This document shows positions 1 to 27,200 of a DNA stretch of 59,340 nt, piece after piece. The notes under the pieces were generated by a model. That model was not told the origin of the DNA. It ran no database searches and saw nothing but the letters and a program-made list of their open reading frames with translations. A program made the position numbers and the translations under genes. The stretch's first letter is position 1. Each line of letters begins with the position of its first letter. Where the stretch lies: IMG/VR virus record IMGVR_UViG_3300021961_000104, positions 1 to 59,340 of that record; one strand, 5' to 3'. The DNA is from a virus (lineage: Duplodnaviria; Caudoviricetes).

Positions 1-160
1 ATTACATATTACTGGGTATGGTGTTGTCCCCTCCCCTCTACACGTTTTTTCTCTAGGAAAAATCATTTCACAAAACGGGCCCCACCCTTCTTTTCTAGAC
101 AATTTTCTATACCTCAACGAGACCCCCTCCCCCACCCCATAGATTTATGACTTTGTCTAG

Positions 161-283
161 ACTATACTATACTCTACTATACTCTACTACTCTATACTAT
201 ACTAAACAATACTACACAGTACTATACGATACTATACTATACTCTACTATACTATACTATACTACAAATACTCTACGATACTA
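161..283. repeat. Degenerate 5-bp tandem repeat array (ACTAT/ACTCT) at the left end
   Basis: actatactat actctactat actctactac ... with 5-nt periodicity over about 120 bp; non-coding, G-poor strand. Confidence 0.9.
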
Positions 284-294
284 TTTGGATAATA
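264..294 (+). promoter_or_regulatory. Early promoter-like motif copy 1 (ACAAA-N5-TACGA-N8-GGATAATA)
   Basis: ACAAA TACTC TACGA TACTATTT GGATAATA; same spacing as five other copies. Confidence 0.65.
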
Positions 295-464
295 CTAATG
301 TTACTAATCTAAACTAATACTAATGTTCTTACATGCTATCTTTCTAGTATTTATTCAAGTCACTATACTAATCTATACTCAGAAATAATATCATACCCAG
401 ATATGATAAATTCAAGTATCATCAATACTAATGATATTTTAACTCCAATACTAATACTAAAAAC

Positions 465-512
465 TGTGACAATAGCCTATTACTCTATATTACTTAATAC
501 CCTTATGTCACA
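465..512. promoter_or_regulatory. Palindrome-flanked site A (TGTGACA-N34-TGTCACA), putative operator/origin
   Basis: Terminal 7-bp inverted repeat; interior matches the reverse complement of 8725-8770. Confidence 0.65.
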
Positions 513-539
513 CTTTTCTAAAACTAATTAAAAACTAAC

Positions 540-570
540 ACAAACAAAATACGTTATCGTCCGGATAATA
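540..570 (+). promoter_or_regulatory. Early promoter-like motif copy 2
   Basis: ACAAA CAAAA TACGT TATCGTCC GGATAATA, upstream of ORF 631. Confidence 0.75.
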
Positions 571-630
571 TAATAAACCAATAAGCAAATATAAAATATA
601 AAATAAATAAATTAAATTAAAATTAAAATT

Positions 631-855
631 ATGCAAATTAAATCAAATCGCTTCGTCATTCGCAAATCATTAATTGGCCAAAATGCCATTATCAATGTCA
701 CTTTCAAAAATAATAAAACTTTTGAATATAATCATGATATCGCTTATGAACTCATGTCTTCAAAATTAAATGAAATGCCTTGCTTTTTAAAATATAAAAG
801 CTATACTTCATCAACTTCAATACCAAAAATATTGCAAAACGCTCAAGTTTTATAA
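631..855 (+). CDS. Hypothetical early protein
   Basis: 74-aa ORF after promoter motif with A-rich leader. Confidence 0.75.
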   Translation: MQIKSNRFVIRKSLIGQNAIINVTFKNNKTFEYNHDIAYELMSSKLNEMPCFLKYKSYTSSTSIPKILQNAQVL

Positions 856-886
856 TATTTTAATATTGCTTTTGAAAAATTGCTAT

Positions 887-924
887 AGACTATATTTTTC
901 TTTGTAGAAAGAGATATATAGTCT
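887..924. terminator. Intergenic hairpin, possible terminator or processing site
   Basis: AGACTATAT...ATATAGTCT inverted repeat downstream of ORF 631. Confidence 0.4.
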
Positions 925-1075
925 TAAACCACCAACTACTTTTTATCAATAAAACAATTATACACTTACAAACTTAAAAAATTATGAGAAAATTCTATCA
1001 CTTTGTATTAATAAAATTCGAGCAATTCCAAGAATTTATGGGAAAAGCACCTAGTGAAACGACTTGGTTTTAATT

Positions 1076-1106
1076 ACAAACTAAAAACGATGCACTTTGG
1101 ATAATA
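1076..1106 (+). promoter_or_regulatory. Early promoter-like motif copy 3
   Basis: ACAAA CTAAA AACGA TGCACTTT GGATAATA. Confidence 0.7.
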
Positions 1107-1443
1107 TAATAAATGCAAAATTATACCTATGATTAATAAAATATTCGAACTTCAAACTTCATTTCAAATAATTTATTCGCACAAATATAAATTATATGAC
1201 TTCACTATTATTGACTTGGAAAGTAAAAAAGTTTTACACCATTATCATTATCCAAATTTAAAAATTATAAATAAATTAATTCAAGAATATAAATAAACAT
1301 TATGAAAAAAGTAACAATTACACTACGATCTTCACAATCCGTTAAAGAAATAAACAAAATAATGGAAGAAATGCTATGGGATAGTGAATTCAGCTATGAG
1401 TTTGAAGACGCGCTTTGGGTGATATCGAAAGATTAATTCAATC

Positions 1444-1474
1444 ACAAACCAAATACGATTATCTTTGGATAATA
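1444..1474 (+). promoter_or_regulatory. Early promoter-like motif copy 4
   Basis: ACAAA CCAAA TACGA TTATCTTT GGATAATA. Confidence 0.75.
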
Positions 1475-1716
1475 TAATAAACAATTAACCAAATATTATA
1501 AAATGGAATTATTATTTAACCCTTCTGACATTATTTCACATGAAAAATTAAAAACTTGGAGTAAAAAAGCTTTAACAGAATATATATTATATTGCACCTA
1601 TATTAAATTTCCTGAAGATAGTTATGAAGAAGATGAACTTCCAATGAATAAATTAATTGCTAAAATATAATTAAAACTTTCCATGCCTGGGATTAGAAAT
1701 ACGGGTGATGCCAAAT

Positions 1717-1757
1717 AGAAGTAATGGTTAATGCGAGTTCGATTCTCGCGACTTCAA
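1717..1757 (+). ncRNA. tRNA minihelix-like element (partial acceptor stem + T arm)
   Basis: GCGAG-TTCGATT-CTCGC T arm; GAAGT pairs with ACTTC; ends ACTAA like the two tmRNA-like RNAs. Confidence 0.5.
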
Positions 1758-1785
1758 CTAAATTAATAAATTAAAAAATAAAATT

Positions 1786-1905
1786 ATGGCAAATATGAGT
1801 ACAGACATCATGAAAATCTCGTTAAAATTATTCAATAAATTTTGGCATGAGTTAAATTCACAACAAAAAGATACAGTTTTAGAAGCGTATTACGATTGGT
1901 GTTAA
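1786..1905 (+). CDS. Small hypothetical protein (39 aa, MANMSTD...)
   Basis: Read manually; first 15 nt identical to start of ORF 2852. Confidence 0.55.
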   Translation: MANMSTDIMKISLKLFNKFWHELNSQQKDTVLEAYYDWC

Positions 1906-1909
1906 TATT

Positions 1910-2125
1910 ATGAAAATATATCAAGTAACAAATTTGTTTTTTCCAAACAAAAAAACATATCGCTGTGATATTGACGGTGATTCTATAGTTGGTGATTATG
2001 CATCAGTATCTGAATGGCGTAATGATAGACTTGAGAATAGTGATTATTACAAAGAATTAAAAGAATTAAACACTAAAGCTACTATTGAATTTTTGTCAAA
2101 AGACAAGGGTAACAAAGGTGATTAA
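1910..2125 (+). CDS. Hypothetical protein
   Basis: ORF track, tightly packed operon. Confidence 0.7.
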   Translation: MKIYQVTNLFFPNKKTYRCDIDGDSIVGDYASVSEWRNDRLENSDYYKELKELNTKATIEFLSKDKGNKGD

Positions 2126-2142
2126 TAAATAATGTAAAAATT

Positions 2143-2460
2143 ATGAAAATAAAAGTGAAAAATCAATTAAATTCTTTTGTTAATATTGATGAAGATGTAA
2201 ACGTTATTTGCAAAGGATGTTTTGGAGGCGATCAAATTAACCAACATACGAAATTTGGTGGTGGTCAATTTAATATGGGCGCAGAATTTAACGGTGGTCA
2301 ATTTAACCAAAAAACAAAATTCCTCGGAAGTCAATATAATTGTGATGCAACATTTAACGGAAGAATGTATTTTACTAACAACACAGTTTGGAAAGAAGGG
2401 ATTTGGAAGCAGAATGATGATGGCACTTTTACCGAATGCAAAATAATACCTAAAAACTAA
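2143..2460 (+). CDS. Protein with 11-aa FxGxQxN tandem repeats (beta-solenoid-like)
   Basis: FGGDQINQHTK/FGGGQFNMGAE/FNGGQFNQKTK/FLGSQYNCDAT. Confidence 0.7.
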   Translation: MKIKVKNQLNSFVNIDEDVNVICKGCFGGDQINQHTKFGGGQFNMGAEFNGGQFNQKTKFLGSQYNCDATFNGRMYFTNNTVWKEGIWKQNDDGTFTECKIIPKN

Positions 2461-2610
2461 AACAATGAAAATAACAGTAAAACACTACGGCGAAAAAGTA
2501 ACAGTCTCAACAAAACGAAATGATCTTTCTCTTGATGAATTTATGGATTGTGTAAAGACTATTGCTACAGCAATATATAACGAACAATTAGTAGAAAATT
2601 ATTGGAAATA

Positions 2611-2823
2611 ATGAAAACACCGATGCAAGAGTTGATTGAGCAACTCAATAGGGTAAAGCCCACAGAATTTTGTTCTATTGAAACAATTAAAGGATGGGCA
2701 GAACAAATGCTTGAGAAAGAGAAAAAGGTGGTGTGTGAGTTTGCATACAATTGCAGGAATATAATGGCAGCAGATGAATTTGCTATTAAACATTGGTACG
2801 ACAAAACTTTTAACACTAAATAG
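2611..2823 (+). CDS. Hypothetical protein (start moved to ATG, MKTPMQELIE)
   Basis: ORF track 2602 start is TTG; in-frame ATG at 2611. Confidence 0.7.
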   Translation: MKTPMQELIEQLNRVKPTEFCSIETIKGWAEQMLEKEKKVVCEFAYNCRNIMAADEFAIKHWYDKTFNTK

Positions 2824-2851
2824 AAATAAAAAACATTTAAAACAAAATACT

Positions 2852-3049
2852 ATGGCAAATATGAGTTATTGCAGAATGCGAAATACTGCAAATGATTTAC
2901 AAGATTGTATAAATGCAATTGAAGAAGGAGAATATACTGATGGAATAAGTAGAGAAGAAAGACGAGGTTTAAACGAAATACTTGAATTAGCTCAACACTT
3001 AATTGATAATCTTCAAGACGAAATTGGAGAAATGTCAATAGCATATTAA
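2852..3049 (+). CDS. Hypothetical acidic protein (MANMSYCR...)
   Basis: In-frame ATG at 2852 after A-rich leader, no overlap with upstream gene. Confidence 0.75.
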   Translation: MANMSYCRMRNTANDLQDCINAIEEGEYTDGISREERRGLNEILELAQHLIDNLQDEIGEMSIAY

Positions 3050-3051
3050 AA

Positions 3052-3501
3052 ATGAAGAAGATAATTTATATAGACATGGACGGCGTTTTAGTCGATTTAG
3101 ATTCAGAAATAAAAAAAACTGAAACTAAAATAAACGGCAAAATGAAGTTTTGTGGTGTTGGTTTTACTAATTTATTCAAAAATCCACAGCCAATAAGTGG
3201 TGCGATTGAAGCTTTTGAAATACTTAGAAAATCACCTAAATACGATGTCTATATATTATCTTCAGCTCCATGGCAAAATCCTGCTACTTGGACATACAAA
3301 AGACTATGGGTAGAAAAATATTTAGGCAAATCTGCTTTCAAAAGACTAATATTATCACATCACAAAAATTTATGTGCCGGTGATTACTTAATTGATGACA
3401 GATTAGCGAACGGTTCTGATAAATTCAATGGTGAATTAATACAATTTGGAACAAAAAACTTTGAGAATTGGAGTGTAATATTGAAATATCTTCAACCTTA
3501 A
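3052..3501 (+). CDS. HAD-family 5'(3')-deoxyribonucleotidase (NT5C-like)
   Basis: IYIDMDGVL motif I, LSS motif II, K..W, LIDD motif IV. Confidence 0.9.
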   Translation: MKKIIYIDMDGVLVDLDSEIKKTETKINGKMKFCGVGFTNLFKNPQPISGAIEAFEILRKSPKYDVYILSSAPWQNPATWTYKRLWVEKYLGKSAFKRLILSHHKNLCAGDYLIDDRLANGSDKFNGELIQFGTKNFENWSVILKYLQP

Positions 3502-3502
3502 T

Positions 3503-3533
3503 ACAAATAAAATACGATTATCTATGGATAATA
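3503..3533 (+). promoter_or_regulatory. Early promoter-like motif copy 5
   Basis: ACAAATAAAATACGATTATCTATGGATAATA, identical to copy 6. Confidence 0.8.
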
Positions 3534-3555
3534 TATTTATAAACAAACAATAACT

Positions 3556-3738
3556 ATGCAAATGAAAAAAATTAAATTTTTAACCGGAAAACGTATATCT
3601 CTTGACGGAGTTATATATAAGCCTTATTTATTAAGCGAATTACCAAATAGCTTCGGCGTGATTTGGGATGAGAATCGAGAAGATTTTGGAATTTCACAAT
3701 GGTTTAATTACAAAGGATTGACTTATGTCCGTAGTTAA
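3556..3738 (+). CDS. Hypothetical protein
   Basis: ORF directly after promoter motif. Confidence 0.7.
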   Translation: MQMKKIKFLTGKRISLDGVIYKPYLLSELPNSFGVIWDENREDFGISQWFNYKGLTYVRS

Positions 3739-3976
3739 TATGAAAGAATTATGCCTCTATGTAGAACAGGCGAGAAAAAATCGTGCAGCGGAGCATAGAC
3801 GCAAGCACTCACATGAAAAACTGTGCGGTGGACTTACAGACTCTGAATATAACAAGATGGTAATCAGACAGAAATCTAGCTTTCCCAAAGCTAAAAAGTT
3901 CACCCATAGTAAAATGTGGCAAGATACACACAAGAAATTTGATGTAAAACAGTTAAATATTATAAAAAAATCATGA
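3725..3976 (+). CDS. Hypothetical basic protein
   Basis: ORF track, short overlap with upstream gene. Confidence 0.7.
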   Translation: MSVVNMKELCLYVEQARKNRAAEHRRKHSHEKLCGGLTDSEYNKMVIRQKSSFPKAKKFTHSKMWQDTHKKFDVKQLNIIKKS

Positions 3977-4102
3977 AAAAAGATATTTTAAATTACATAG
4001 ATTGGAATAATATTTGTAAGGATTATGATTTAGAAAGTGGTGATTTATCTTTAGATCATACTTTAACGTTAGAATATATATTAGAATATTTTATAAAAGC
4101 AA

Positions 4103-4133
4103 ACAAATAAAATACGATTATCTATGGATAATA
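4103..4133 (+). promoter_or_regulatory. Early promoter-like motif copy 6
   Basis: 31-bp exact repeat of 3503-3533. Confidence 0.8.
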
Positions 4134-4160
4134 TATATGTAACAAATAAAAACAGAAATT

Positions 4161-4409
4161 ATGAGTAAGTTTTTTAATAAACAACTAATCGATGAATTAG
4201 TAGAAATAGCTCAACATGAAGGTTGGGAAATAATGGTAAATGATGTTTATAATCTGATTAATCTTGAATATAGTAACGAAAATAAAGAAGATAGATTTAC
4301 ATTGATGAAAACATTAATAAACGAAGTTGGTTTTGTTATTAAACAAAAGTTAATAATTAAAAATAAACATGAAAACATTAGGTTATTTTATAGTAGAAAA
4401 CGAAATTGA
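4161..4409 (+). CDS. Hypothetical protein
   Basis: ORF after promoter motif. Confidence 0.65.
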   Translation: MSKFFNKQLIDELVEIAQHEGWEIMVNDVYNLINLEYSNENKEDRFTLMKTLINEVGFVIKQKLIIKNKHENIRLFYSRKRN

Positions 4410-4535
4410 AAGAAATGTATTAGAAGTAGCGCTCGATCACATGGAAGAGCATCTAATAAATATTAGCGATGAGGTAGATGTTAAAAATAGGCTCAAAGCT
4501 TGTAGAAATTTAATGAAAAAAATAATATATTAATT

Positions 4536-4733
4536 ATGAATATTAAATATTGTAAATGCGGAAAAACAGTGCATCCAATACGATTAAAATTAGGTTATAA
4601 TACTTGTGTAGATCATTCTACAGTGCAAACTTACTCTTATGTTCCAATTATCGAGCATAAAACAGGTAATACAATTCAAATCGTTAGCCAAGAAGTTAGT
4701 GCTTCAGTGCACAGAGCTTGGCGACGTAAATAA
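4536..4733 (+). CDS. Small zinc-finger protein (DksA/TraR C4-finger-like)
   Basis: CKCGKTVHPIRL...TCVDH resembles CxxCGxxIxxxRL...CxxC. Confidence 0.55.
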   Translation: MNIKYCKCGKTVHPIRLKLGYNTCVDHSTVQTYSYVPIIEHKTGNTIQIVSQEVSASVHRAWRRK

Positions 4734-4739
4734 AATCAC

Positions 4740-4816
4740 GGGGGTGATTGGTTTTGACATAGCGTAAAGCCTACAAGGAAACGTTATGGAAGAGGGTTCG
4801 AATCCCTCCACCTCCA
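4740..4816 (+). ncRNA. Mini tmRNA-like RNA: tRNA-like domain only, Ala identity
   Basis: GGGGGTG/CACCTCC acceptor with G3:U70, A discriminator, stemless D loop ATTGGTTTTGAC, 8-bp P2-like helix, T arm GAGGG-TTCGAAT-CCCTC. Confidence 0.8.
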
Positions 4817-4842
4817 CTAAAACAAATAAATTATACATTATT

Positions 4843-5073
4843 ATGGCTAAATACAACGGTTGGACAAACTACGCTACATGGCGTATAAACTTAGAAATAT
4901 TAGAAGATATTGAATTTGAAAAACAAGTTTCTGCAGATTATTTAAAAGAAATAGTAGAAAATATAATATTCACTAACAAATCTGAAGGTGGATATATAGA
5001 AGATTACGCTAGAGCTTTTGTATCTGAAGTTAATTTCTATGAAATAGCTAAAAATATTAATGAAGAAAAATAA
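4843..5073 (+). CDS. Hypothetical phage protein (MAKYNGWTNYATW)
   Basis: In-frame ATG after the ncRNA; YNGWxNxxTW motif familiar from phage early genes. Confidence 0.8.
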   Translation: MAKYNGWTNYATWRINLEILEDIEFEKQVSADYLKEIVENIIFTNKSEGGYIEDYARAFVSEVNFYEIAKNINEEK

Positions 5074-5083
5074 ATAAATAAAA

Positions 5084-5356
5084 ATGACAAAAACAGAAAC
5101 AAAAAATCCAGAATTTTTAAAAGTAATGAATTACTTTTCAGATGTAACTTTTTTTGATAACGTAAACGGTGAAGAAGTTCATGTTCACGATTTTGCAAAA
5201 GATGATAATATAAGTTCATTTGGTTATATGTTCTGGTGGAATTTTGATGAACAAGAATGTGGTATTGAGTATATGAATACCCCGGGTTCTATTGAAAATG
5301 ATGAACCTTGTAGAACTGCGCAAGATTTTATTAACTACATTGAAGACAGTATGTAA
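5084..5356 (+). CDS. Hypothetical acidic protein
   Basis: ORF track. Confidence 0.75.
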   Translation: MTKTETKNPEFLKVMNYFSDVTFFDNVNGEEVHVHDFAKDDNISSFGYMFWWNFDEQECGIEYMNTPGSIENDEPCRTAQDFINYIEDSM

Positions 5357-5358
5357 AT

Positions 5359-5736
5359 ATGAGAGATATTAAAATACCTAAACATCAAGAAATAGTTAAT
5401 AAAATTAATGCTATGCAAGATTTTACTTACTATAAGAAAAAAAAGCGTAAATTAAGATATGTAGTTAGTTGTAATAACCTATATAAAGGCGAAAATCCAT
5501 CAATGAAGTGGTTTAGTTCTAATGAAAAAATAGATGAAATACTTAAAGACGAAACGTTCGAAGGTATTGGAGGGTGGTTTGATAAAGAAAACAATATTTA
5601 TTATGTAGACGCTGTGAAAACGTATTTAACTTTAAGCGTTGCTATGGGTATGGCTAATATGTTTAAAGAAAAAAGTATTTATGACACAAAAGAAAATAAA
5701 GTATTAAAAGTAAAAGATTATTATAAATTAGTATGA
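5359..5736 (+). CDS. Hypothetical protein (possible phage SAM-lyase-like fold, GGW..D...YYVD..QxSIYD pattern)
   Basis: C-terminal GGWFDKENNIYYVDA...EKSIYD; function only tentative. Confidence 0.6.
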   Translation: MRDIKIPKHQEIVNKINAMQDFTYYKKKKRKLRYVVSCNNLYKGENPSMKWFSSNEKIDEILKDETFEGIGGWFDKENNIYYVDAVKTYLTLSVAMGMANMFKEKSIYDTKENKVLKVKDYYKLV

Positions 5737-5984
5737 ATAAATTAAGTTTATTAGAAAGATTAAGACCTGACATAAAGCAGCAATTAGATAAAGACGAATA
5801 TCTTTATCCAGCTGTTATTAAAGATTTAAAGTTTTTATTATCACAACAAATTTTCTATAGCGATCTTACAGTTGGTCAAGTTATACAGTTGTGTTTATTT
5901 TCAACAATAAAAACGTACGATAGAACCTCTTTCAATTGGAAATATGGAGATGATTTATTTGAAGAAGAAAAAGAAAATATATGA
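5733..5984 (+). CDS. Hypothetical protein
   Basis: ATGA overlap with upstream gene. Confidence 0.75.
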   Translation: MNKLSLLERLRPDIKQQLDKDEYLYPAVIKDLKFLLSQQIFYSDLTVGQVIQLCLFSTIKTYDRTSFNWKYGDDLFEEEKENI

Positions 5985-6187
5985 ATACAATACACCAAAA
6001 AGCAAGCGATAGAGCTTTTGCAAAGTTAACAATGCTATTGTTAGAAAAAGAAAAAATAGAACAAGACTTGAGAAAAAGAAATACTGGAGGTTTAACCTTA
6101 GAAGAGTTTAAATCTTTACATGAAGGTCACTTACAAGAAATAAAAATATGGAATTATATAGCAAATTTAATAGAAAAAAACACATAA
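5981..6187 (+). CDS. Hypothetical protein
   Basis: ATGA overlap with upstream gene. Confidence 0.75.
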   Translation: MNTIHQKASDRAFAKLTMLLLEKEKIEQDLRKRNTGGLTLEEFKSLHEGHLQEIKIWNYIANLIEKNT

Positions 6188-6190
6188 ATT

Positions 6191-6637
6191 ATGAAAAAAA
6201 TAACAGAAGAATTAATTAACGAAAGATTAGAAGCTAAAGGCTTTGGTGAAAATATAGCTAAAGACGAAGATTTAGTGCACGAAGCTGTGCTAGGTCACTA
6301 TGGTTGTGAGTTAATTGACGAATGGGATGACAACGCGGAATACTTTATTTGCGAAGAGTCAACTGCTGATGGATATTCAGTGTACATTGCCACCTCAAAT
6401 CCACGTCAAATTAATGTTAGTGAAGACGTACATTATTACGATTCAGACCTCGGTGAAATGCTAGCCGAAGCTATAAAATGGAGTAATGGCGATACAGAAG
6501 ATCGAGTAAAAATATATGTTGAGGATCTAGGTGCACAATATGTTCAAGATGCAATGGAACAATTATTTGAAGAGCTTTCAGAAAGATTTGAAGAAGAAGT
6601 CTTAATGGATCTTAAAGAAGAAGGTTATTCTGAATAA
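6191..6637 (+). CDS. Highly acidic early protein (candidate DNA mimic)
   Basis: About 41 D/E versus about 11 K/R in 148 aa (hand count). Confidence 0.75.
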   Translation: MKKITEELINERLEAKGFGENIAKDEDLVHEAVLGHYGCELIDEWDDNAEYFICEESTADGYSVYIATSNPRQINVSEDVHYYDSDLGEMLAEAIKWSNGDTEDRVKIYVEDLGAQYVQDAMEQLFEELSERFEEEVLMDLKEEGYSE

Positions 6638-6649
6638 AATAGAGTAACA

Positions 6650-6730
6650 GGGTGTGACATCGGTTGATTGTACTAGGAACTCGGAGAGGAGATACGGTAC
6701 AGGGTATAGGTTCGAATCCTATCACATCCA
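6650..6730 (+). ncRNA. Second tmRNA-TLD-like/atypical tRNA-like RNA with Ala identity
   Basis: GGGTGTG/CACATCC acceptor with G3:U70, A discriminator, no D stem, TGTACT/GGTACA helix, T arm ATAGG-TTCGAAT-CCTAT. Confidence 0.75.
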
Positions 6731-6751
6731 CTAATTATAAAACAAAAATTA

Positions 6752-7045
6752 ATGACAGAAGAAGAAATGGACAAAATAGCTGAAATTATTGTCAATAAAA
6801 TGATAAAAAAGCAAGCGGAATATGACCAAAAGTTTAAACAAGAGTTACAAATGATTATAGATAATAATTTAGAAGACAATGATTTAATTATAGAACTTAA
6901 TACACAAAGTGCTTCTGATGTTGCTCGCCAAGAAATAGAAAGACTTAATAAAGAATTAAAAAACTCTATAGAGCAAGAAAATTACGAAAATTGTATTAAC
7001 CTTGCTAATCAAATTAACTATTTAAAAGAAAAATATAAACTATGA
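6752..7045 (+). CDS. Coiled-coil protein with C-terminal UVR (UvrB/C)-like motif
   Basis: LKNSIEQENYENCINLANQI. Confidence 0.65.
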   Translation: MTEEEMDKIAEIIVNKMIKKQAEYDQKFKQELQMIIDNNLEDNDLIIELNTQSASDVARQEIERLNKELKNSIEQENYENCINLANQINYLKEKYKL

Positions 7046-7872
7046 TAAAACCAATGTTAGCACATAAAGTTAACAATAATAAAATTGACTGGTCTGAAGA
7101 TGTTTTTATTCAGCCAAAACTAGACGGTGTCCGTTGTGTATTCACTAAAGATGGTGCTTATTCTCGTACTGGTAAAAAGTTTTATAACTTACGTCACGTA
7201 GAACTTGAACTCAAAGATTTTTTTATCAAAAATCCATTTGCAGTATTAGACGGTGAGTTATATAATCATGATCTAAAAGACGATTTCGAACAAATCATAT
7301 CGTTAGTCAGAAAACAAAAACCAACTGAAGAGGATCGCAGAAATGCACAAAATCTCATACAATATCATGTGTATGATACTATAGCCGAAGGTCCTAATTA
7401 CAAAGATAGACTCGAGTGGTTGCAATCAAATGTAATCACCGATCAAACTGTAAGATTAGTATTAACTATGAATGTAAATAATTATAATGAAGCTAATAGA
7501 TTTCATAATGATGTTTTCTTAAAACAAGGTTATGAAGGTTCTATATTACGCTTAAATCGTGCTTATGAGCAAAAACGCAGTTATAATCTTATGAAATTTA
7601 AAGATTTCAGCGATGACGAGGCTGTAATTATAGATTATGTCGCTGGTAAAGGCAAGAGACTTGGAACTCTTGGTAAATTTATTATGCGAGATGACTCTGG
7701 CATTGAATTTGGTTGTCCTCCGGGTAAAGGTTGGGACTACAGTAAATTAGAATATATATTAAATAATATTCAAGATTATATAGGTAAAAAAGCCACGTTC
7801 ACTTATTTCGAAAGAACTAAAGCTAATAGCTACAGACATCCACAATTTAAAACAATTAGAGATTATGAGTAA
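7042..7872 (+). CDS. ATP-dependent DNA ligase
   Basis: KLDGVR motif I, LDGEL, YDT, EGSILR, KFK; C-terminal OB fold. Confidence 0.95.
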   Translation: MIKPMLAHKVNNNKIDWSEDVFIQPKLDGVRCVFTKDGAYSRTGKKFYNLRHVELELKDFFIKNPFAVLDGELYNHDLKDDFEQIISLVRKQKPTEEDRRNAQNLIQYHVYDTIAEGPNYKDRLEWLQSNVITDQTVRLVLTMNVNNYNEANRFHNDVFLKQGYEGSILRLNRAYEQKRSYNLMKFKDFSDDEAVIIDYVAGKGKRLGTLGKFIMRDDSGIEFGCPPGKGWDYSKLEYILNNIQDYIGKKATFTYFERTKANSYRHPQFKTIRDYE

Positions 7873-7950
7873 ATTAATATGGAAATTATACAATGAAAAC
7901 ATGATAAGCCAAGAAGTGGCTCAAATGTTACTAGATAAATACTATGAATA

Positions 7951-8454
7951 ATGAATATATTTTATTTAGATAGAGATCCAGTGAAAGCTGCACAAGTACA
8001 ATATGACAAGCATGTTGTTAAAATGATCTTAGAATCAGCTCAAATGTTGTGCACAGCACATCATCACTATGCTGAATTATTAGGTTATGACAATAGTTAT
8101 ATTCCTTACAAAAAAGCACACTACAATCATCCTTCAACAATATGGACTAGAAAAAATAGTAGAAATTACTATTGGTTGTTTAATCACATGATCGCATTAG
8201 GCAATGAATACACTAAACGTTATGGTAAAAAACACTTAAGCATAACCAAATGTTTTGAGGTACTTCAAAATTGTCCCTTAGGTATGCCATTAGGTGGTTC
8301 TTTTACAGAGCCACCTCAATGTATGCCAGATCAATATAAAGTTGATGGCGATAGCGTGTCAGCATATTGGAATTATTATGAAAACGAAAAACACACTGTA
8401 AAAAACAAGAATGAGCAAAAAATTATACGACATATTAACATTAAACAATTATAA
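7951..8454 (+). CDS. Pyrimidine-dimer DNA glycosylase/endonuclease V-like protein
   Basis: MNIFYLD...DKHVVKMILESAQML, NHPSTIW, PQCMPD family motifs. Confidence 0.8.
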   Translation: MNIFYLDRDPVKAAQVQYDKHVVKMILESAQMLCTAHHHYAELLGYDNSYIPYKKAHYNHPSTIWTRKNSRNYYWLFNHMIALGNEYTKRYGKKHLSITKCFEVLQNCPLGMPLGGSFTEPPQCMPDQYKVDGDSVSAYWNYYENEKHTVKNKNEQKIIRHINIKQL

Positions 8455-8639
8455 TGGTATTTCTGACAAAATCAAAAGAGAAAGAAAAAAAAGCGCGCCA
8501 CGTGAAGTTTCTGGAGAGCAAGATAACAGAACTTTACAGCGAAGTTCTAAGTGAAGTTATAGAGGGCAATAGCCCTATAAACAAAGCAAAATTAATCAAA
8601 AAATATAATAATAGATTAAAATTATTAACATGGGTGTGA
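8454..8639 (+). CDS. Hypothetical protein
   Basis: TAATG coupling with upstream gene. Confidence 0.65.
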   Translation: MVFLTKSKEKEKKARHVKFLESKITELYSEVLSEVIEGNSPINKAKLIKKYNNRLKLLTWV

Positions 8640-8724
8640 CAGAAGAATTATTTGTTAAATTAAAACAAAAACAAAATAAATTCACAAAAGACAAAATTAT
8701 ATTTTGTACTTTAGAACCAGAAAC

Positions 8725-8770
8725 TGTGACAAAAGCCCTTAAGTATAAATAGTAATAGGCTAATGTCACA
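8725..8770. promoter_or_regulatory. Palindrome-flanked site B (TGTGACA-N32-TGTCACA), overlapping start codon of HTH gene
   Basis: Reverse complement aligns with 465-512; right arm overlaps ATG at 8763. Confidence 0.65.
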
Positions 8771-9383
8771 TGAAAGAAACATAGATTATTTACACAAAAG
8801 ACGTATTGTCTATCGTAGAAATCCTATAAACGATAAACCAACGCAAAGGTTTGAGTGGGGTGATTTCTATGAAGACGGTACGTATGAGTGTTACACATTG
8901 TTTCGTAGTAAAGCTAAAATCACAACATATAAATCTTTAAAATGGCATTTGTTAGTGTTATGGTATCTTAATCCACAATTAGATCAAGATGATTTTGATG
9001 ATATAGCTAGATTTTTATGCCATAAAGAAAATGGATTTATAACTTTTAATGTAATACCAGGTGTATTAAACAATATAATACATGAGGTTAGCATGTTTGA
9101 CTTAGATGAACCTCCAAAAAACAAATTAAGAAAAATTATATTTAATGATTTTTGCGGTTTATCTTTAGAAGAAAAAATGAAGATAGTTGGTCAAATGATA
9201 GGTAAATCAAAAAAAGTAAATCAAGACGATATTTACGAATGTATGATAGATCTTAATGACACAGGTCAAAAGATAACAATATCTCGTATCGCTAATTTAT
9301 TAAATTGTTCACCTAGAACAGTATACAGAACAATGGGTAATGAACTTAAGAAAGAAAAAGAATTGTTAAACAAACAAATATGA
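8763..9383 (+). CDS. DNA-binding protein with C-terminal HTH (possible replication initiator/regulator)
   Basis: ITISRIANLLNCSPRTVYR HTH. Confidence 0.75.
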   Translation: MSHERNIDYLHKRRIVYRRNPINDKPTQRFEWGDFYEDGTYECYTLFRSKAKITTYKSLKWHLLVLWYLNPQLDQDDFDDIARFLCHKENGFITFNVIPGVLNNIIHEVSMFDLDEPPKNKLRKIIFNDFCGLSLEEKMKIVGQMIGKSKKVNQDDIYECMIDLNDTGQKITISRIANLLNCSPRTVYRTMGNELKKEKELLNKQI

Positions 9384-9476: not shown

Positions 9477-10232
9477 ATGAAGAAATATAACGTACAAAAT
9501 TACATTAGATACAAAGAAGATGTTAAAAAATCTATGCCTAATGACAGAAAATATAATGAGTACAATAGAGACGAACTTATTATAAAGTTTTTACCACTTG
9601 TAGAAAATTTAGCCAGAAAATTCTCTACATCTCAACAAGCTTCAGGTGTTTTAACTATAAATGATTTAATTCAAATTGGATCTGAATCTTTGATAAAAGC
9701 GGTTGATAGAATTGAATGGGAAACATTAAACAAATCAGAAGACATCGAAAAAACTTTAAAATCATTTTTGTCGAAAAGAATAAAAGGCGGTATTAGAAGA
9801 CAAATAGATATGGCTAGAGGTAACATGAGAATACCAGAGCATAAACTAAATGAAATACGTAGTAACCCTAAAGACAAACAAATGGTTGAAATGTTTTTTA
9901 ATAGTATATTCTTAAGTATAGATGCTCAAACTTCTAACGACGACGAGGAAAATATGATATATCAAATTGCAGATAAATCTGAACCATATAACATACAATT
10001 TCTTAACATTTATTTAAAAAGTTTAATGGAAAAACATTTAAACAAAAATGAATATGAAGTGCTTAGACTTTCTTACGGTCTTGACTGTGATCCGCATTCT
10101 GCAATTCAAATAGCAGAAAAATTAGGTATCAATGGTACAAGTTCTTACGTTAGAGTATCTGAGCTTAAAAAACAGGCTGTAACCAAATTAATAGAAAGCG
10201 TAGATCACTCACAAGTGCTTGATTTTCTTTAA
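9477..10232 (+). CDS. RNA polymerase sigma70-family factor
   Basis: Region 2 LPLVENLARKF...DLIQIG...LIKAVDR, MRIP, region 4 VLRLSYGL...IAEKLG. Confidence 0.9.
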   Translation: MKKYNVQNYIRYKEDVKKSMPNDRKYNEYNRDELIIKFLPLVENLARKFSTSQQASGVLTINDLIQIGSESLIKAVDRIEWETLNKSEDIEKTLKSFLSKRIKGGIRRQIDMARGNMRIPEHKLNEIRSNPKDKQMVEMFFNSIFLSIDAQTSNDDEENMIYQIADKSEPYNIQFLNIYLKSLMEKHLNKNEYEVLRLSYGLDCDPHSAIQIAEKLGINGTSSYVRVSELKKQAVTKLIESVDHSQVLDFL

Positions 10233-21229: not shown

Positions 21230-24200
21230 TTATTGTTTTTTACTCATTAATTCTAATATCTTATTAACTCTATCTTCTTCATATTTTAAAGCTCTAATTT
21301 CTTTTTTACTTAAACCAAAGTTAGTTAATGTTTTTACTTGATCTGGTTTGTTCTCGGCTTTAATTGAATCAAATTGTTTTTGTAATCTTTGTTCAGCTGT
21401 TAGTTTCTTAGGTTTAACCTCTTCTTTTGGTTTAACTTCTTTTTTAGTAGATTCTACTTCTTCTTTAGTTTCAATTTTTTCTATAGGTTTATTTTTTAAC
21501 TCTATAATTTTATTGACTCTATTTTCTTCGTATTTTAATTCTTTAATTTCAGCTTTAGTTAAACCTAATTCTTCCAACATTTGCTTTTGTTCAGCAGTGT
21601 TAGTTTGGTCCATCATTAATTTAACAGCTTCAGCAGCTTCTTCTTCTGGTGTTAAAGGCTCAACAGCATCAAAACCACCGTAATAAGGTAAACCAACGTC
21701 GTAAGTTGACCAACCTAAAATTAAAGCTATTTTTTGCCATCTTACAGAAAGTTCGCTAAATATACCTCTCATGTTGTTTGTTTTCTTAACAACTCTGTCT
21801 ACTGGCACGTTAGTTAAACCTGTAAATACTTGAGCTACTGCTAAGTAAGCTGGATTATCTAAACTCCAACCTTTTTCTTTCATTTCTTTTTTATTCCAAC
21901 TAAAAGATCTTAAACCTCCATATATTTTACCTACTTTAGATCCTAATGGCGGAGAAAAAGCAAACAAATCCTCAACAGCTTCTTCGTATTCAGGTCTTTT
22001 TTTATCATTTTCTTCCATTAAAGTTAACAAAAAGTTTTTTAAGGAAGATACAGCAGCCCCAGTTATACCAAGTCCTCTAAGTTGAGAATCAAGCATACCA
22101 TTTGCAACTTTAACAGCTTTTTCTTTACGAGTATTTTTTAGCTCTTCTTTGCTATCATCATCGTCATCATCTCCAAAACCAATAGCATCTATAGCTGATT
22201 GAAGTGTATTGAATAATAAGTTTTGAACAATACCATAGTATATTATTTTAGAAACATTAGCTTTAGCATTGCCTCTACCGTTAACAAGATCTTGTATAGC
22301 TCTTTTTTGAATACGAGCATACTGCATTGGTGTATTTGCCCATGCTAATATAACTCTACCAGCTGTTGACGCTTGTTGTTTACTAATTCTAACCGGATTG
22401 CTAGACTGTTGACTTTCTTCTGCTATTGCTCTAAAATCTTCAAAAGCACGTTGTTCAGCTAGTTTAGGATCCATACCTGATTTAACTAAACTTTTTATTC
22501 TATTTCTATAAAATGTAGAACCTCCACTAGCTATAGCAAAACTATCTGCAATTTGAGTCATAACAAATCCTTTGTTAAGGATATAAGAAATAATAGCAGT
22601 CGCTTTATTTTTAGAGTTAGCAGCAGCATCAGCAATTTCAGATTCACTTATGTTTATCTTTAAACCATTTCTACGTTCAACAAGATAATCAGAATTCATT
22701 AATGTAATAAAATCTTTCCAAAATTGTTTTTGATTAGCAAATGCTAAACCTGCTTTAAATATATTATTATCACTCCAGTTTATAAAGTTTACAGATGATA
22801 TAGTTTGTAACAAGGCACTTCTAGTATTCAAAAACATAACAGCACCAACGGAATTGTTAAGCCAATCTAATATACCTTGTGTAGTACTATCACCTCCTTT
22901 GGGTCTATTACTACCAGACTTCATTCTACGGATAGAATCCTCTATAGCTGCTCGCCAATTAGTACCATAAGCAGCTTCCATTTTATTTAAATTTTCTTCT
23001 GAAAATATAATATCAACATTTTCTCTAAACTCTTGTTGGTACTCGGCTCTTTTAACTGTATTTATATCATTAATAATATCAGAACTTATAGTACCGGCTA
23101 ACCAACTATCAGATGGTGAAGGATATGGTTTGTCTTTTTGTATAGTAAAAAGTTGCTCTGCAAATACTTTTAATTTAGGATCACTTTCAACAAATGAAGT
23201 TAAATCTTGAATATCTTTTTTACTTAAACCAGGAATTTCGACACCTTGACTTTGCCATATAAACACTCTTATAGCATGAGAATAATTAAACTTACCTATA
23301 CCAGTTTGTTTGTTAAGTGTTTTTGGTAATGTTTTAAGCTGTGTTTTTAAAGCAATAAAATCGTTCATTGCAGCTATCTTAGCTTGAGTTACAGATATTT
23401 CAGATCTATTGTATGTATCTAAAAGATTTTGTTTTAGGAACGCCATTTGTGCATCACCTTTTTTACCTTTACCTATCATTTCATACAATAAACCAGTAAA
23501 ATCTTCTGCGCCAGCGGGTATAAAGAAATTGTATTTACCTTTTCCAGCGCCAACAGTTCTAGCTTTAGCTGCTGAGTATTTTTTATAAGTTTCAATACCA
23601 GCTGTATCAAAAATCATATCATTAATAACTCTATCAAAATCTTGTCTTTTACTAGCTTTAGCTTGTTGAACTTTAGACTTAACGTCAATTTGACTCAATA
23701 CTTCTTCAACAGCTTTTACATTTCCAGTAACATCATCAGCAAAGTAAAAATCATTATAACCTTCAGAAGCTTTGTCCATAATCCATCTAGCCTTAGCTTC
23801 AGCAGCGCCATCACCAAGTCCAGTTATATTTTTAATAGGTATATTTAAACCTAAACTTTTAAGGAATTGTTGAATTGGTTTAGCGGCGTCAGCTGGTCTT
23901 GCTGTTAAAACAAAAATATCTTTAGTACCTCTTTTGTCAGCTATAATTTTAGCGACTTTAAACAATGGTCCTTCTTTGCCATCTATAACTTTGCTAAATT
24001 CAGAAAAATTCCATTCAGCTCCTTGTGCTTCTAAATCAGTGGCTTGTTCAGCGAAAGTTCCAGCCTCTAGTTTACCTTGAATATTGCTATTAATACCAGC
24101 ATAAACTTTATCTAAAAAATCTTGTGGTAAATCCTCTCCAAAGCCTATTTCTTCTGTATTTATTTCATACAACTTATCGCCAAAATCTTTTCTATAAAGC

Positions 24201-27200
24201 TCGGTACTTTCTTGCACTTGGTTCCAACTTCTTTCGACTATAAAATCTGGTAAAGATCTTTCTACTCTAGCTTTGTTTCTAGCCAATGCCGTTTCTAAAG
24301 ACGTATTAGCAACTACCATATGGACTTCATAACCTGCATCCTGCAACTGCTTAACTTTTTTCATTGTAGCAGGGTAAGAAGCTCCAGTGCCGTCAATCAC
24401 CATACCATCGCCATTAGCAGCGTATTTATCAAATTTAGCAACAGCAGCTTTTCTAGCAGCGGCACCCAATTTAGCTCTAGTAGATATTTGCTCTGTAGTA
24501 TATTCAGCTTCTTTAGCTGGCAGTCCAGCTTCAGCTTTCATAACTTCTAAAGCTATATCTTGATTAACAACTTTATAACCTTGTCTACCTAACTTAAGCC
24601 CTTTTCCAATGTTTGTTTTTCCAGCACCAGGTCCACCAACCATAAATATAGCTTTCTGTCTAACTGATTCAGGAGAAAAACCACCTTCAAAATTAGGCAT
24701 AGTATATATAACTCTACTATTAGTACGAGCTAATGTATCGTCAAAATCAAATACTCTAATTTTCTTAACTGGCGCGTTTAATTTTCTAGCATTATTTAAA
24801 GCTTTATCAGCTTTGCTTAAAGCATCGATACTAGTTTTAACTGTTACAGCTTTATCGTACTTTATAGAGTCAGGGATTAAATCACTATTACGTTTAGAAG
24901 CCATTGCTTTACCTTTAACTAAAGGTAGATAAGCTTTAATTGTTTGACTAGGATTATAATTTAGATCACTAATAGCCTTAATTATTTGTTCGTTTTGATA
25001 AGAAATAGCCTCTAACTTTTGACTTTCGTTATAAGAATTATAAACATCTAGTGGAATACCAGCGTTTACAGTTTCAGCCATAGTTTTGCCAGTGTAAGGA
25101 TTTGTAATAGTATTTAAATCTATACCAGCAGCAGCAAGTCTAACTATTGGATTGTCAAATATAGTGAAACCTTCTGGAAGAGTAGAATCTAACTTAGCCA
25201 TATCTAATAAAAAGTCATCCTTTTTAGATAATTGAGTTTGATAATAGTTATCTCTAATAGCTTGCATTATTGGTTGGGCTTTGTTATTTTTTATTGCCCA
25301 CATAATATAAGCTCCAACTACAGAAGCTGGTGGATTATGTTCTTCTCTATATTTTTCTCCTTTTCTTTGCTCTGGTTTACTACCTTTTCCAGCATATTCC
25401 ATTGTGTTGGATCTGTATAAAAAAGGAGCGGCTATTTTTATTAAACCAGAAGTGGCTTGATAGCTTTGTACAATTATAGTTCCAGCTACATCTAAAGACA
25501 TTCCATTAGCAACAGCGTCAGCAAGTTGATTAACAACATGATCTAACACATCCATGTTTACTTTAGACTGAACCTTTGCTTTATCTGTAAAAGCATTTTT
25601 GATATTTATTTTTATAGGTTTTTTACCTTTATATTCTTTAGTTGATTCTATTAATTTTATATAAACAGGATCTTTTTCACCATAATATAATCTTCCTGGT
25701 TTTGCAACCCAATTAGTTATTTCGCTACCAAGGCTACCTTCAGCAGATTTCTCTAAAAAATATCTACCATCTGTAGTTTTAACATATTTTTCAACACCAA
25801 TAGTGCCTTTTTTTCCTTTTACAAATTTACCATCAACTATTTTACCGTAAAAACTTTGTCTTCCACCACTACCCATCATTCCAGCTCTCAATGTAGCTGT
25901 ATCAAGTCCATATTTTTCGACAGCTTCTTGTATTTGATCTTGAATAGTTTTTCTATTTTGTTCATTTATAGAAGGTGAATTATAACGCAACGACTTAGCT
26001 AAATCGGTTTTAGATCTTAGTATGCTTAAACCTTTTAGTTCTTCTAAATTTTCAGGCGTTATTCTTTTACTAGCCATTGATTTAGATTTTCCAGCAGCTA
26101 TATCTTGTTTAACCTCTAAATTTAAATCAGTTTCAGATCTTACTATTTCATTAGTTACTAATCTACCATATAGATTTGCAATACCTTTTAACGCTTGAGC
26201 CTCAGATGATCTAGCGCTAAAGTCTTCAGCTTTTTTACCTTCAACTATACCAAACGTTTTTAGAAAATCAGCTTTTGTAATTCCTTTATTTAAAGCAAAC
26301 GGAGATAAACCAGCTCCTTTAGTAATTCTAGGTTTTTTAGTATAAAAAGCATTTAACAAACCCTTTGGCACTCCAGTAGAGGTACCTAAGAGCTTATCTG
26401 TTGCAGCTTCTATCACTGCGCCTTCAGGTAATATCTTTAATAATTTATCTGCGTTCTTATTGACAAATCTTTGTATAGCATTAGCATCACCTTTAGATAG
26501 GTTAGCAGTTGGATCTGTTAGTTTTTTAACTGGTATTCCAATTTCTTGAGCTATAATTTCAGGAGCTAGATCGCCTAACTTCTTAAACGTCATTTGTTCA
26601 GGATCTATACCTTTTATTTTAGAAGCAATATTTTCTTTTATTTTAGCAACAGCATCGTTAGATATTAAAGAGCTAGGTTTTATTAAAGTTGTAACTGGTT
26701 TTGTAGATACTTCAACATCTTGCTCTGTAGCTGTTTGGCGTTGCATTTTTTCAGTAACACCTTCTTGTGACTCAGATTGAATGATCTCATTATATCTAGG
26801 GTCAGCTTCATAAAACTCTTGCAACCTAGCGTCAAATAAGCTTCTGCCAGAAGCAGACTTTGAGTTTAAGTAACCCATGACACTATCGTTTCGATCTGGT
26901 GTCCATTTATCTATTAAGCTAACTAATCCTCTTTTTTCATCTAAAGCAAAAGTTCTAGCTATATCATCAATAACGTCTTCGCTTAGGTTTATATTACGCA
27001 TACGTCTTTTAGCCTCATCAACTAAAGAATACGCAGCCATAATAGTAGCATCTTTCTTTTTATTAGAATCAAGAAGATCTGGCTTCATGGCCTCAACTTC
27101 TTGATATACTCTTTTACTCTCTTTAGCAGCAGTATCAGTGACCTCGTCTTGCATCAAACTCTCAAAACTTTTAATAGCTTTAGCGCCTTTGGTTCTTTGA

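Follow-up and report, generated by a model that had tools for sequence, protein, structure and literature searches.

The element at positions 6650-6730 of the IMG/VR record IMGVR_UViG_3300021961_000104, the genome of an uncultured tailed phage (the stretch of 59,340 bp analysed here, hereafter the window, is 92% complete by the CheckV estimate), is very probably a real and selected RNA, shaped like the tRNA-like domain (TLD) of transfer-messenger RNA (tmRNA) and devoid of an anticodon. Its fold can be read directly, is conserved in orthologues with covarying helices, and places it in a family of RNAs that is restricted to phages. The best overall explanation is a functional gene for a TLD-mimicking RNA, which would serve as decoy or stand-in in the SmpB/tmRNA ribosome rescue of the host, a proposal on which the scales are evenly poised; the SmpB and trans-translation mechanism specifically, which is drawn from analogy, is put forward tentatively, at somewhat less than even likelihood.

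Direct reading of this 6650 RNA (coordinates in Table 1) returned all the features listed for it in an earlier sequence-only reading, namely G3:U70, A73, the CTAA trailer, the GG-containing D loop, the central helix and the T loop. The acceptor stem pairs throughout as G1-C72, G2-C71, G3:U70, U4-A69, G5-C68, U6-A67 and G7-C66, with both sides of pair 4 changed relative to the main type of the family described below. A 3-bp AUC/GAU mini-stem is possible in the D region and is lost in the homologue L239. The 49 nucleotides (nt) that separate the acceptor 5' strand from the T stem form one helix and one hairpin, the latter with a 3-bp CUC/GAG stem and a 6-nt loop, and a 7-bp helix at the place of the central helix appears in only 2% of shuffled interiors. 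Neither a tag reading frame, nor pseudoknots, nor an anticodon loop are found in this RNA, whose overall shape, with acceptor stem, T arm, a D loop lacking a stem, and a helix where a tRNA has its anticodon arm, is that of the tmRNA TLD. The spacer that precedes the T arm is mostly AAC at the same place in the main family. The AUAGG/CCUAU T stem also occurs in the syntenic RNA of the L048-type phages, and, compared with the main family, compensatory changes affect its pairs 1 and 2. The whole element stands out by a GC content of 0.475, versus ~0.2-0.35 around it. The CTAA trailer also follows directly the discriminator of many ordinary tRNA genes in related phage loci (L003, L031, L034 and other tRNA clusters), and is therefore not specific to TLD-only RNAs.

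Such likeness to tRNA genes raises the question of a canonical tRNA that scanners miss, such as a tRNA-Ala that contains a short intron or has an odd anticodon arm. The top Rfam match of the element is indeed the tRNA model RF00005 (24.8 bits), and ARAGORN calls one family member, at L016:556-652, a 97-nt tRNA-Gln (CUG), the conserved UUCUGAG of the L016/L048-type cassette resembling an anticodon loop. Nonetheless, the Rfam score falls below the cut-off of 29 bits and is reached with a 23-nt insert at the anticodon-loop place, the apical loop is of 6 nt and variable, and ARAGORN reports 0 tRNA or tmRNA genes in the whole window and is silent in 7 of the 8 family loci scanned. Moreover, inspection by eye shows that the anticodon stem required by this call has mismatches in L016 and loses further pairs in L048-type variants, and short tRNA introns are not known from bacteria or their phages. 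Thus, the absence of a 7-nt anticodon loop claimed by the sequence-only reading stands, no scanner folds the element as a canonical tRNA, and that explanation is extremely improbable.

Recognition of the element came from a covariance model, R2, built from 20 RNAs of other phages and holding no sequence of the window. When the window was searched with the filters off, R2 gave 44.8 bits (E 5.6e-9) for the 6650 RNA, a score surpassed in the whole window by that of a related RNA at position 4740 alone (48.3 bits) and followed by a third match of 25.8 bits, all remaining ones scoring <= 13.8 bits. On two marine flavobacterial genomes the same model returned ordinary tRNAs with top matches <= 27.8 bits; therefore, the score of the 6650 RNA does not reflect generic tRNA likeness. 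The 11-mer GGTTCGAATCC is found in the window only at the 4740 and 6650 RNAs, against 0.22 occurrences expected, two matches being reached by 2 of 100 shuffles. The covariance-model search of phage genomes that had been suggested from the sequence hence finds this RNA, with covariation in acceptor stem, central helix and T stem. Rfam models, by comparison, have their cut-offs reached only by two host-like members, the 4740 RNA of the window and L006, and among 19 loci scanned at the Rfam gathering threshold 0 main-family RNAs reach the cut-off of any family.

Orthologues of the 6650 RNA were obtained from a metagenome scan and a cassette scan. The closest one, L172, shares 94.8% identity with the window over 2,576 bp, and its RNA differs at three places: the opposed internal-loop positions 6677 and 6694, which change together from G.A to U.G, and U70, which becomes C and gives G3:C70. 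More distant in its surroundings is L292, whose RNA is 90.6% identical over 96 nt and keeps G3:U70 and A73. Among the changes in this RNA, one U-A pair of the central helix has become C-G, in a compensatory way, and one of the acceptor stem has become U.G. Outside the RNA, L292 (3,095 nt in all) resembles other parts of the window only weakly, through two short DNA matches and three translated ones, and none of the 16 window ORFs (open reading frames) tested has a homologue in it. L239 carries the cassette of the window in the main GGGCGUG scaffold, shows compensatory changes in acceptor stem, central helix and T stem, and scores 35.4 bits on the Rfam tmRNA model RF00023. The first two pairs of the central helix exhibit compensatory changes in L292 and L239. 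When the four sequences are aligned, 96.9% of the stem cells pair and 5 of the 24 pairs change on both sides, against a pairing of 32-54% in slid controls.

A MAFFT alignment of 20 family members displayed pairing in 240/240 stem cells and compensatory changes in 5 of 12 pairs, values that none of 500 shuffles reached, the complete pairing being in part by construction because these members were picked by a script for perfect stems. Among 31 distinct members, 27 close the middle with a central helix of at least 4 bp, versus a mean of 12.2 and a maximum of 18 for shuffled interiors. Between the 6650 RNA and the L048/L016-type RNAs, homology of this helix is judged by eye only, MAFFT having misplaced its 5' strand when the two types were aligned.

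These data bear on whether the element might be a decaying relic of a tRNA-Ala or tmRNA gene, or an attachment-site fragment of the host ssrA. A folding energy like that of shuffles, Rfam scores below cut-off and a divergence from L172 similar to that of the flanks would all be consistent with decay. On the contrary, all helices are intact and change in a compensatory way across orthologues, the RNA is conserved (~91%) between the unrelated flanks of L292, and the family counts dozens of members. An attachment-site fragment is further at odds with the presence of both acceptor strands, and a search of the record for Phage_integrase (E <= 1) detected no integrase. A relic is therefore highly improbable, and it remains very improbable that either this or a canonical tRNA is the answer, even if both are taken together, so that the sequence-only reading was borne out in regarding the element as a member of a structural family.

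The extent of that family was explored by pattern scans of IMG/VR, which gave first 37 and then 81 stretches, the 81 carrying the main 3' module, and by model searches, which produced ~100 strong matches in the fetched loci. A pattern made on the T arm of the 6650 RNA (ATAGG-T-loop-CCTAT-CAC) retrieved 97 stretches, and nearly all of the 79 inspected are ordinary tRNAs. Main-type members show near-invariant ends, GGGCGUG at the 5' side and, at the 3' side, CACGUCC-A preceded by the T stem GCAGG/CCUGC, and whole lengths of 67 to 160 nt, the spread arising from their varying middles. Of 77 distinct main-type elements, 60 pair their 3' strand with GGGCGUG and retain the G3:U70 wobble, one has A3-U70, and 16 are ambiguous under the nearest-match rule applied. 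In a sister AGGCGUG lineage, G3:C70 is present in 4/5 distinct sequences and U73 in 5/5. Five related records contain one to three model matches each, with two strong ones in three of the five, as in the window. No family match at E <= 1e-4 was detected in 151 genomes of the bacterial family that holds the flavobacterial genome G001. At the long end, full-length phage tmRNAs of 319-386 nt found in IMG/VR have the same ends as the 4740 RNA, and the short and the full-length forms are bridged by others of 126-185 nt, whose ends are those of the main family. Regarding the alanine identity that had been assigned from the sequence, it holds for the 6650 copy (G3:U70 and A73) and fails for its lineage, considering that L172 carries G3:C70 and the AGGCGUG elements mostly G3:C70 with U73.

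The central cassette, UAGGAACUC-N6-GAGAUACGG, behaves as a module. It was located in 8 IMG/VR stretches (L239:10878-10901, L287:177-200, L286:10080-10103 on the minus strand, L292:592-615 on the minus strand, and also L288, L289, L290 and L291), which, counting the window, place it in four contexts: within the GGGUGUG scaffold, within the main GGGCGUG one (L239), within a tRNA-like scaffold of non-Ala type (L287), and in an intergenic region (L286, L288-L291). Its flanks and 3-bp stem are invariant, and the 6-nt apical loop varies (GGAGAG, AGGGAG, AGGGGG, GGCGAA). The L016 cassette is likewise found in two settings: one phage has it at position 1, carried by the main scaffold, and others have it at position 2, carried by the AGGCGUG/AUAGG scaffold. 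Searches of the cassette contexts against Rfam retrieved no family at E <= 0.01. On a contig of the metatranscriptome run X14, a variant of the 6650 RNA was also seen in which 4 nt of the apical loop (window 6682-6687) are replaced by 38 nt that resemble a second copy of the cassette arms.

Other members reduce or extend the middle (Table 1). In mini elements of 40-45 nt the central helix is missing, and a GG loop of 9-10 nt is all that stands between the acceptor stem and the T arm, with N73 and a CTA-type trailer at the end; their acceptors differ in sequence yet stay paired, and G3:U70 is kept by L264 alone. Regarding the long central-domain members, a tag reading frame was considered for L039, L249, L225 and L285 and rejected, as the variable apical stretch is, by eye, a hairpin with compensatory changes. 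Two further kinds of tRNA-like elements were noticed during these scans. One has AACUAGG... at its 5' end and CUAGUU-A at its 3' end, with GAGG/CCUC as T stem and a long insert (L017:4036-4147, L021 at reverse-complement positions 8708-8794, and L286 at ~9915-10010 on the minus strand), and lies close to TLD-only RNAs in some phages. The other (L022:1923-2003, L065:1756-1832 and L065:2002-2081) comprises tRNA-like genes in which the D arm is normal and G3:U70 and A73 are present, but the anticodon arms are aberrant.

Such modularity suggests a different use of the same fold, in which the tRNA top half would be a mere scaffold for cutting, CCA addition and stability, and the exchangeable cassette would bind a protein or an RNA; in a variant of this proposal, the two or three elements of each genome would decoy other host factors that recognise the top half, such as toxins attacking the acceptor end. 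Ends that hardly change over 60 distinct main-type elements with middles that do, the loss of alanine identity in some lineages, and mini forms reduced to acceptor stem, D loop and T arm all agree with it, as do the two scaffolds and positions of the L016 cassette; the presence of the window cassette in four contexts fits either a scaffold with its cassette or a decoy with several targets. However, 60 of the 77 distinct main elements keep the thermodynamically weaker G3:U70 together with A73, which points to selection for alanine identity, something that a mere scaffold would not need, and A3-U70 is seen in a single element. In addition, the family grades into full-length phage tmRNAs, and no cassette has a known partner. 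Altogether, the scaffold proposal is unlikely, although not negligibly so. Equally doubtful, at about one chance in a few, is what it would entail, a phage repertoire of natural 'tRNA-scaffolded' small RNAs whose function lies in their cassettes or in decoying several factors and not only in SmpB titration; and it would be with the same reserve that UAGGAACUC-N6-GAGAUACGG is described as moving between at least four frames, with mini and non-Ala versions coexisting.

The first TLD-only RNA of the window, the 4740 RNA, helps to situate the second. RF00023 matches it at 4740-4819 with 65 bits over model positions 1-374, the 306-nt middle of the model being replaced by 13 nt. Its 5' 20-mer matches 24 genome stretches, mostly Bacteroidota tmRNA genes, including those of marine Flavobacteriaceae, and 9/10 of the Bacteroidota tmRNA genes with a located 3' end encode no CCA. 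Relative to the 6650 RNA, both partners differ in acceptor pair 4 and in pairs 1-3 of the T stem, exactly the compensatory stem differences described in the sequence-only reading. The kinship of the two RNAs that it proposed stands in so far as both belong to one family, but they are not a simple pair: judged by sequence, the 4740 RNA copies the ends of Bacteroidota tmRNA, whereas the 6650 RNA is of the phage-specific scaffold family, outside Rfam's reach. A weak third candidate at 1688-1761, lying between ORFs 1503-1670 and 1910-2125 at a local GC peak of 0.438, combines a short acceptor stem and a AAUGGUUAAU loop with a T arm, made of a GCGAG/CUCGC stem and a UUCGAUU loop, and is followed by CTAA as trailer. 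Its R2 score is within the range of ordinary tRNAs, and similar mini elements occur in relatives.

Table 1. Coordinates of the 6650 RNA, its parts and the other elements and genes discussed (window positions unless a locus is named; R1 and R2 are models).
Feature	Position	Strand	Remarks
Anticodon-less tRNA-like RNA, whole	6650..6730	+	81 nt, G1 to discriminator A73
Acceptor stem, 5' strand GGGUGUG	6650..6656	+	7/7 pairs with 6723-6729
D-loop-like region	6657..6668	+	12 nt, contains GG, without conserved D stem
Central helix (P2-like), 5' strand	6669..6674 (7-bp form starts at 6668)	+	pairs with 6696-6701
Central cassette UAGGAACUC-N6-GAGAUACGG	6674..6697	+	internal loop and 3-bp hairpin at 6680-6691
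Central helix, 3' strand	6696..6701 (7-bp form ends at 6702)	+	closes internal loop and hairpin
Spacer GGGU, central helix to T arm	6702..6705	+	3-4 nt
T arm AUAGG-UUCGAAU-CCUAU	6706..6722	+	5-bp stem, 7-nt loop
Acceptor stem, 3' strand CACAUCC	6723..6729	+	U70 = 6727; C in L172
CTAA trailer, no encoded CCA	6731..6734	+	direct reading
First TLD-only RNA of the window	4740..4820	+	77 nt plus CTAA; sister member of the family
Weak third candidate, mini top-half element	1688..1761 (core ~1716-1761)	+	R1 27.1 bits; R2 25.8 bits, E 2.9e-4
Zinc-ribbon ORF	4536..4733	+	65 aa; just upstream of the first RNA in relatives
ORF upstream of the 6650 RNA	6191..6637	+	148 aa, no known family; in relatives, homologue lies before the second RNA
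ORF downstream of the 6650 RNA	6752..7045	+	97 aa, no known family
DNA ligase gene	7042-7872		after ORF 6752-7045
Mini elements	L043:2705-2748, L045:2995-3038, L264:7470-7513 (-), L052:3473-3518		
Mini elements, located within these positions	L169:4808-4896, L173:5067-5136 (-), L184:240-336, L246:6005-6089, L261:5948-6033 (-)		
Long central-domain members	L039:2237-2366, L249:4118-4246, L225:1245-1373 (-), L285:684-836 (-)		125-149 nt

Both RNAs occupy fixed places in gene order. The ligase and ORF 6191-6637 served to find relatives, and in these the first RNA comes after the zinc-ribbon ORF and the second after the homologue of ORF 6191-6637. An RNA at this second place, upstream of the ligase gene, was observed in L042, L048/L156, L165, L167, L169, L173, L177 and L184, those of the L048-type phages having A1:U72, U73 and a different cassette; L043 and L045 gave weak mini-element matches only, between the ORF 6191-6637 homologue and the ligase gene, and at the same place L046 and L047 gave no model match. 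The zinc-ribbon ORF, with a very conserved C-terminal half, is just upstream of the first RNA in six relatives and reaches 83-87% identity in relatives where the ORFs next to it have 26-60%. It has 155 clusters of unnamed homologues and an AlphaFold model with a mean predicted local distance difference test score (pLDDT) of 77.5, and its searches retrieved a family from neither Pfam nor PHROG, nor any fold from the PDB at E <= 0.001. Its tie to the RNAs is one of gene order only.

Within the window the 6650 RNA is tightly embedded in a left arm made of a run of small plus-strand ORFs, with gaps of 12 nt to the upstream and 21 nt to the downstream same-strand ORF. A promoter scan found 51 promoter-like sites, versus 56.1 +/- 7.0 in shuffles and hence no enrichment, and no plus-strand terminator was found in 1-9000. 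Considering these short gaps and the lack of signals of its own, the RNA is probably cut from an early transcript. It could then be mainly a processing signal, at which RNase P and 3' tRNA nucleases would segment an early polycistronic mRNA and release an RNA without function. The embedding between ORFs, promoter-like sites no more frequent than in shuffles, the missing terminator, the two or three elements at fixed intergenic places in relatives and a trailer identical to that of real tRNA genes are compatible with this, and so is a minimal conserved unit equal to the top half, which is what RNase P needs. Such a role leaves unexplained, however, the conserved central helix and cassette, the retention of G3:U70 and A73 in the main family, and the conservation of the RNA in the different gene context of L292. 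Cutting is, besides, expected under the best explanation as well, so that the two are not mutually exclusive; a role mainly as processing signal is considered rather improbable.

The proteins of the phage include matches to primase-helicase, ribonucleotide reductase, chaperonin and DNA ligase, and the N-terminus of a 1411-aa ORF (33204-37439, minus strand) matches the muzzle protein of crAss viruses, which indicates kinship with crAss-like phages. The carriers of the family are uncultured marine phages related to crAss-like phages, with hosts that are probably Bacteroidota. No CCA-adding enzyme encoded by the phage was found in the record. Among GenBank phages, a DNA search with a 4-kb stretch matched a ligase fragment only, searches with two family RNAs matched the T arms of tRNAs only and did not find the family, and the ligase protein had no relative above 39% identity; consequently, no cultured relative was found. 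A 2916-aa ORF (21230-29980, minus strand) was also seen to contain an AAA_33/Zeta_toxin-type kinase domain at residues 1770-1926.

Returning to a TLD mimic acting on ribosome rescue, the following course may be envisaged for the 6650 RNA. It would be transcribed together with early genes, without promoter or terminator of its own; host RNase P would make its 5' end and a 3' tRNA-processing nuclease its 3' end, CCA being added afterwards. G3:U70 is the main alanine identity element, and this copy, which has it along with A73, could therefore be charged by alanyl-tRNA synthetase, even if charging is probably dispensable for its sub-lineage. The RNA would then bind SmpB, competing with host tmRNA or replacing it, and this occupation of SmpB would blunt or redirect ribosome rescue and tagging during infection. 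A decoy or stand-in at SmpB is favoured because of a published precedent, the TLD-only tmRNA of mycobacteriophage DS6A, which is the one phage case described in the literature consulted. The experimental source for inhibition by TLD-only RNA is reportedly Mao et al. 2009.

Several observations weigh against this proposal. (i) Expression and processing are presumed, the relatives in the metatranscriptome runs X14 and X20 being contigs that show neither transcripts, nor ends, nor CCA. (ii) G3:C70 in L172 and in most of the AGGCGUG lineage, which has U73 besides, implies that alanine charging, and hence ribosome entry as an Ala-TLD, is not conserved. (iii) The RF00023 tmRNA model, with a curated cut-off of 47 bits, does not report the 6650 RNA at E <= 10, the top Rfam match being instead the tRNA model, itself below cut-off. 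(iv) The spacer before the T arm is GGGU, versus GGAC in bacterial tmRNAs and AAC in the main family, and with a differing spacer the contacts with SmpB may differ as well. (v) No SmpB encoded by the phage was found in the record. (vi) The folding energy, -21.5 kcal/mol, is not distinctive (z = -0.49, with 59/200 shuffles at least as stable), so that the case rests on comparison with other sequences; within that comparison, part of the complete pairing of the 20 aligned members is owed to their selection, and the divergence from L172, 3.7% for the RNA versus 1.4-11.6% for its neighbours, means that this pair alone displays no extra constraint. (vii) Simple titration of SmpB would require neither several copies per genome, nor exchangeable middles, nor mini forms devoid of a central helix.

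Regarding novelty, TLD-only RNAs appear here as common in a clade of uncultured marine phages, usually as two or three diverged copies per genome that standard annotation misses, and their combination of near-invariant ends with modular middles is likewise new. In the literature consulted no account of a phage family of TLD-only RNAs was found, supplements being outside its scope (Table S1 of PMC9004378, on the tmRNAs of 402 phages, may hold reduced forms). The models R1 and R2 could annotate genes that are now read as empty intergenic DNA. If the trans-translation mechanism were true, ribosome rescue would be a regular target of phage takeover in Bacteroidota, and the natural variants, with or without G3:U70 and with or without the central helix, would allow dissecting what a TLD needs for SmpB binding and ribosome entry.

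Among known RNAs, the 6650 RNA shares with full-length tmRNA (RF00023) the G3:U70 pair, A73, the stemless D loop with GG, a helix for the anticodon arm and the T arm, and it differs in having neither pseudoknots nor tag frame, as well as in escaping the RF00023 model. With canonical tRNA-Ala (RF00005) it has in common the acceptor identity elements, the T arm and a trailer of the tRNA-gene type, but it lacks both anticodon arm and D stem, scores 24.8 versus 29 bits and receives no ARAGORN call. The closest precedent is that of mycobacteriophage DS6A, whose tmRNA is TLD-only (PMC4131195; tmRNA Website entry) and is stated to inhibit endogenous tmRNA in E. coli (PMC11915505). Its proposed action is titration of SmpB, charged or not, with inhibition of host trans-translation, and DS6A figures as a single case, whereas the present family has dozens of members and two or three copies per genome, the comparison being one of descriptions. 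Unlike DS6A, an actinobacteriophage, the carriers found here are uncultured marine phages, probably of Bacteroidota; exchangeable cassettes, mini forms and sub-lineages without G3:U70/A73 go beyond what that description of DS6A contains.

Reading-frame-less tmRNAs are also described for jakobid mitochondria and Mallomonadaceae plastids (PMC11915505; PMC3590771), the plastid forms being of ~65 bp. As in these, the tRNA-like domain is kept in the window RNA and the mRNA-like region is gone; yet the organelle forms serve as rescue RNA of the organelle itself, together with SmpB that is imported, while the window RNA is viral, adds to the full tmRNA of the host and comes in several diverged copies. 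Finally, the engineered 'tRNA scaffold' RNAs, presented in PMC3753655, man-made molecules in which a foreign insert replaces the anticodon arm of a tRNA-like frame, may offer a working analogy for the family, should its cassettes prove to be the functional part.

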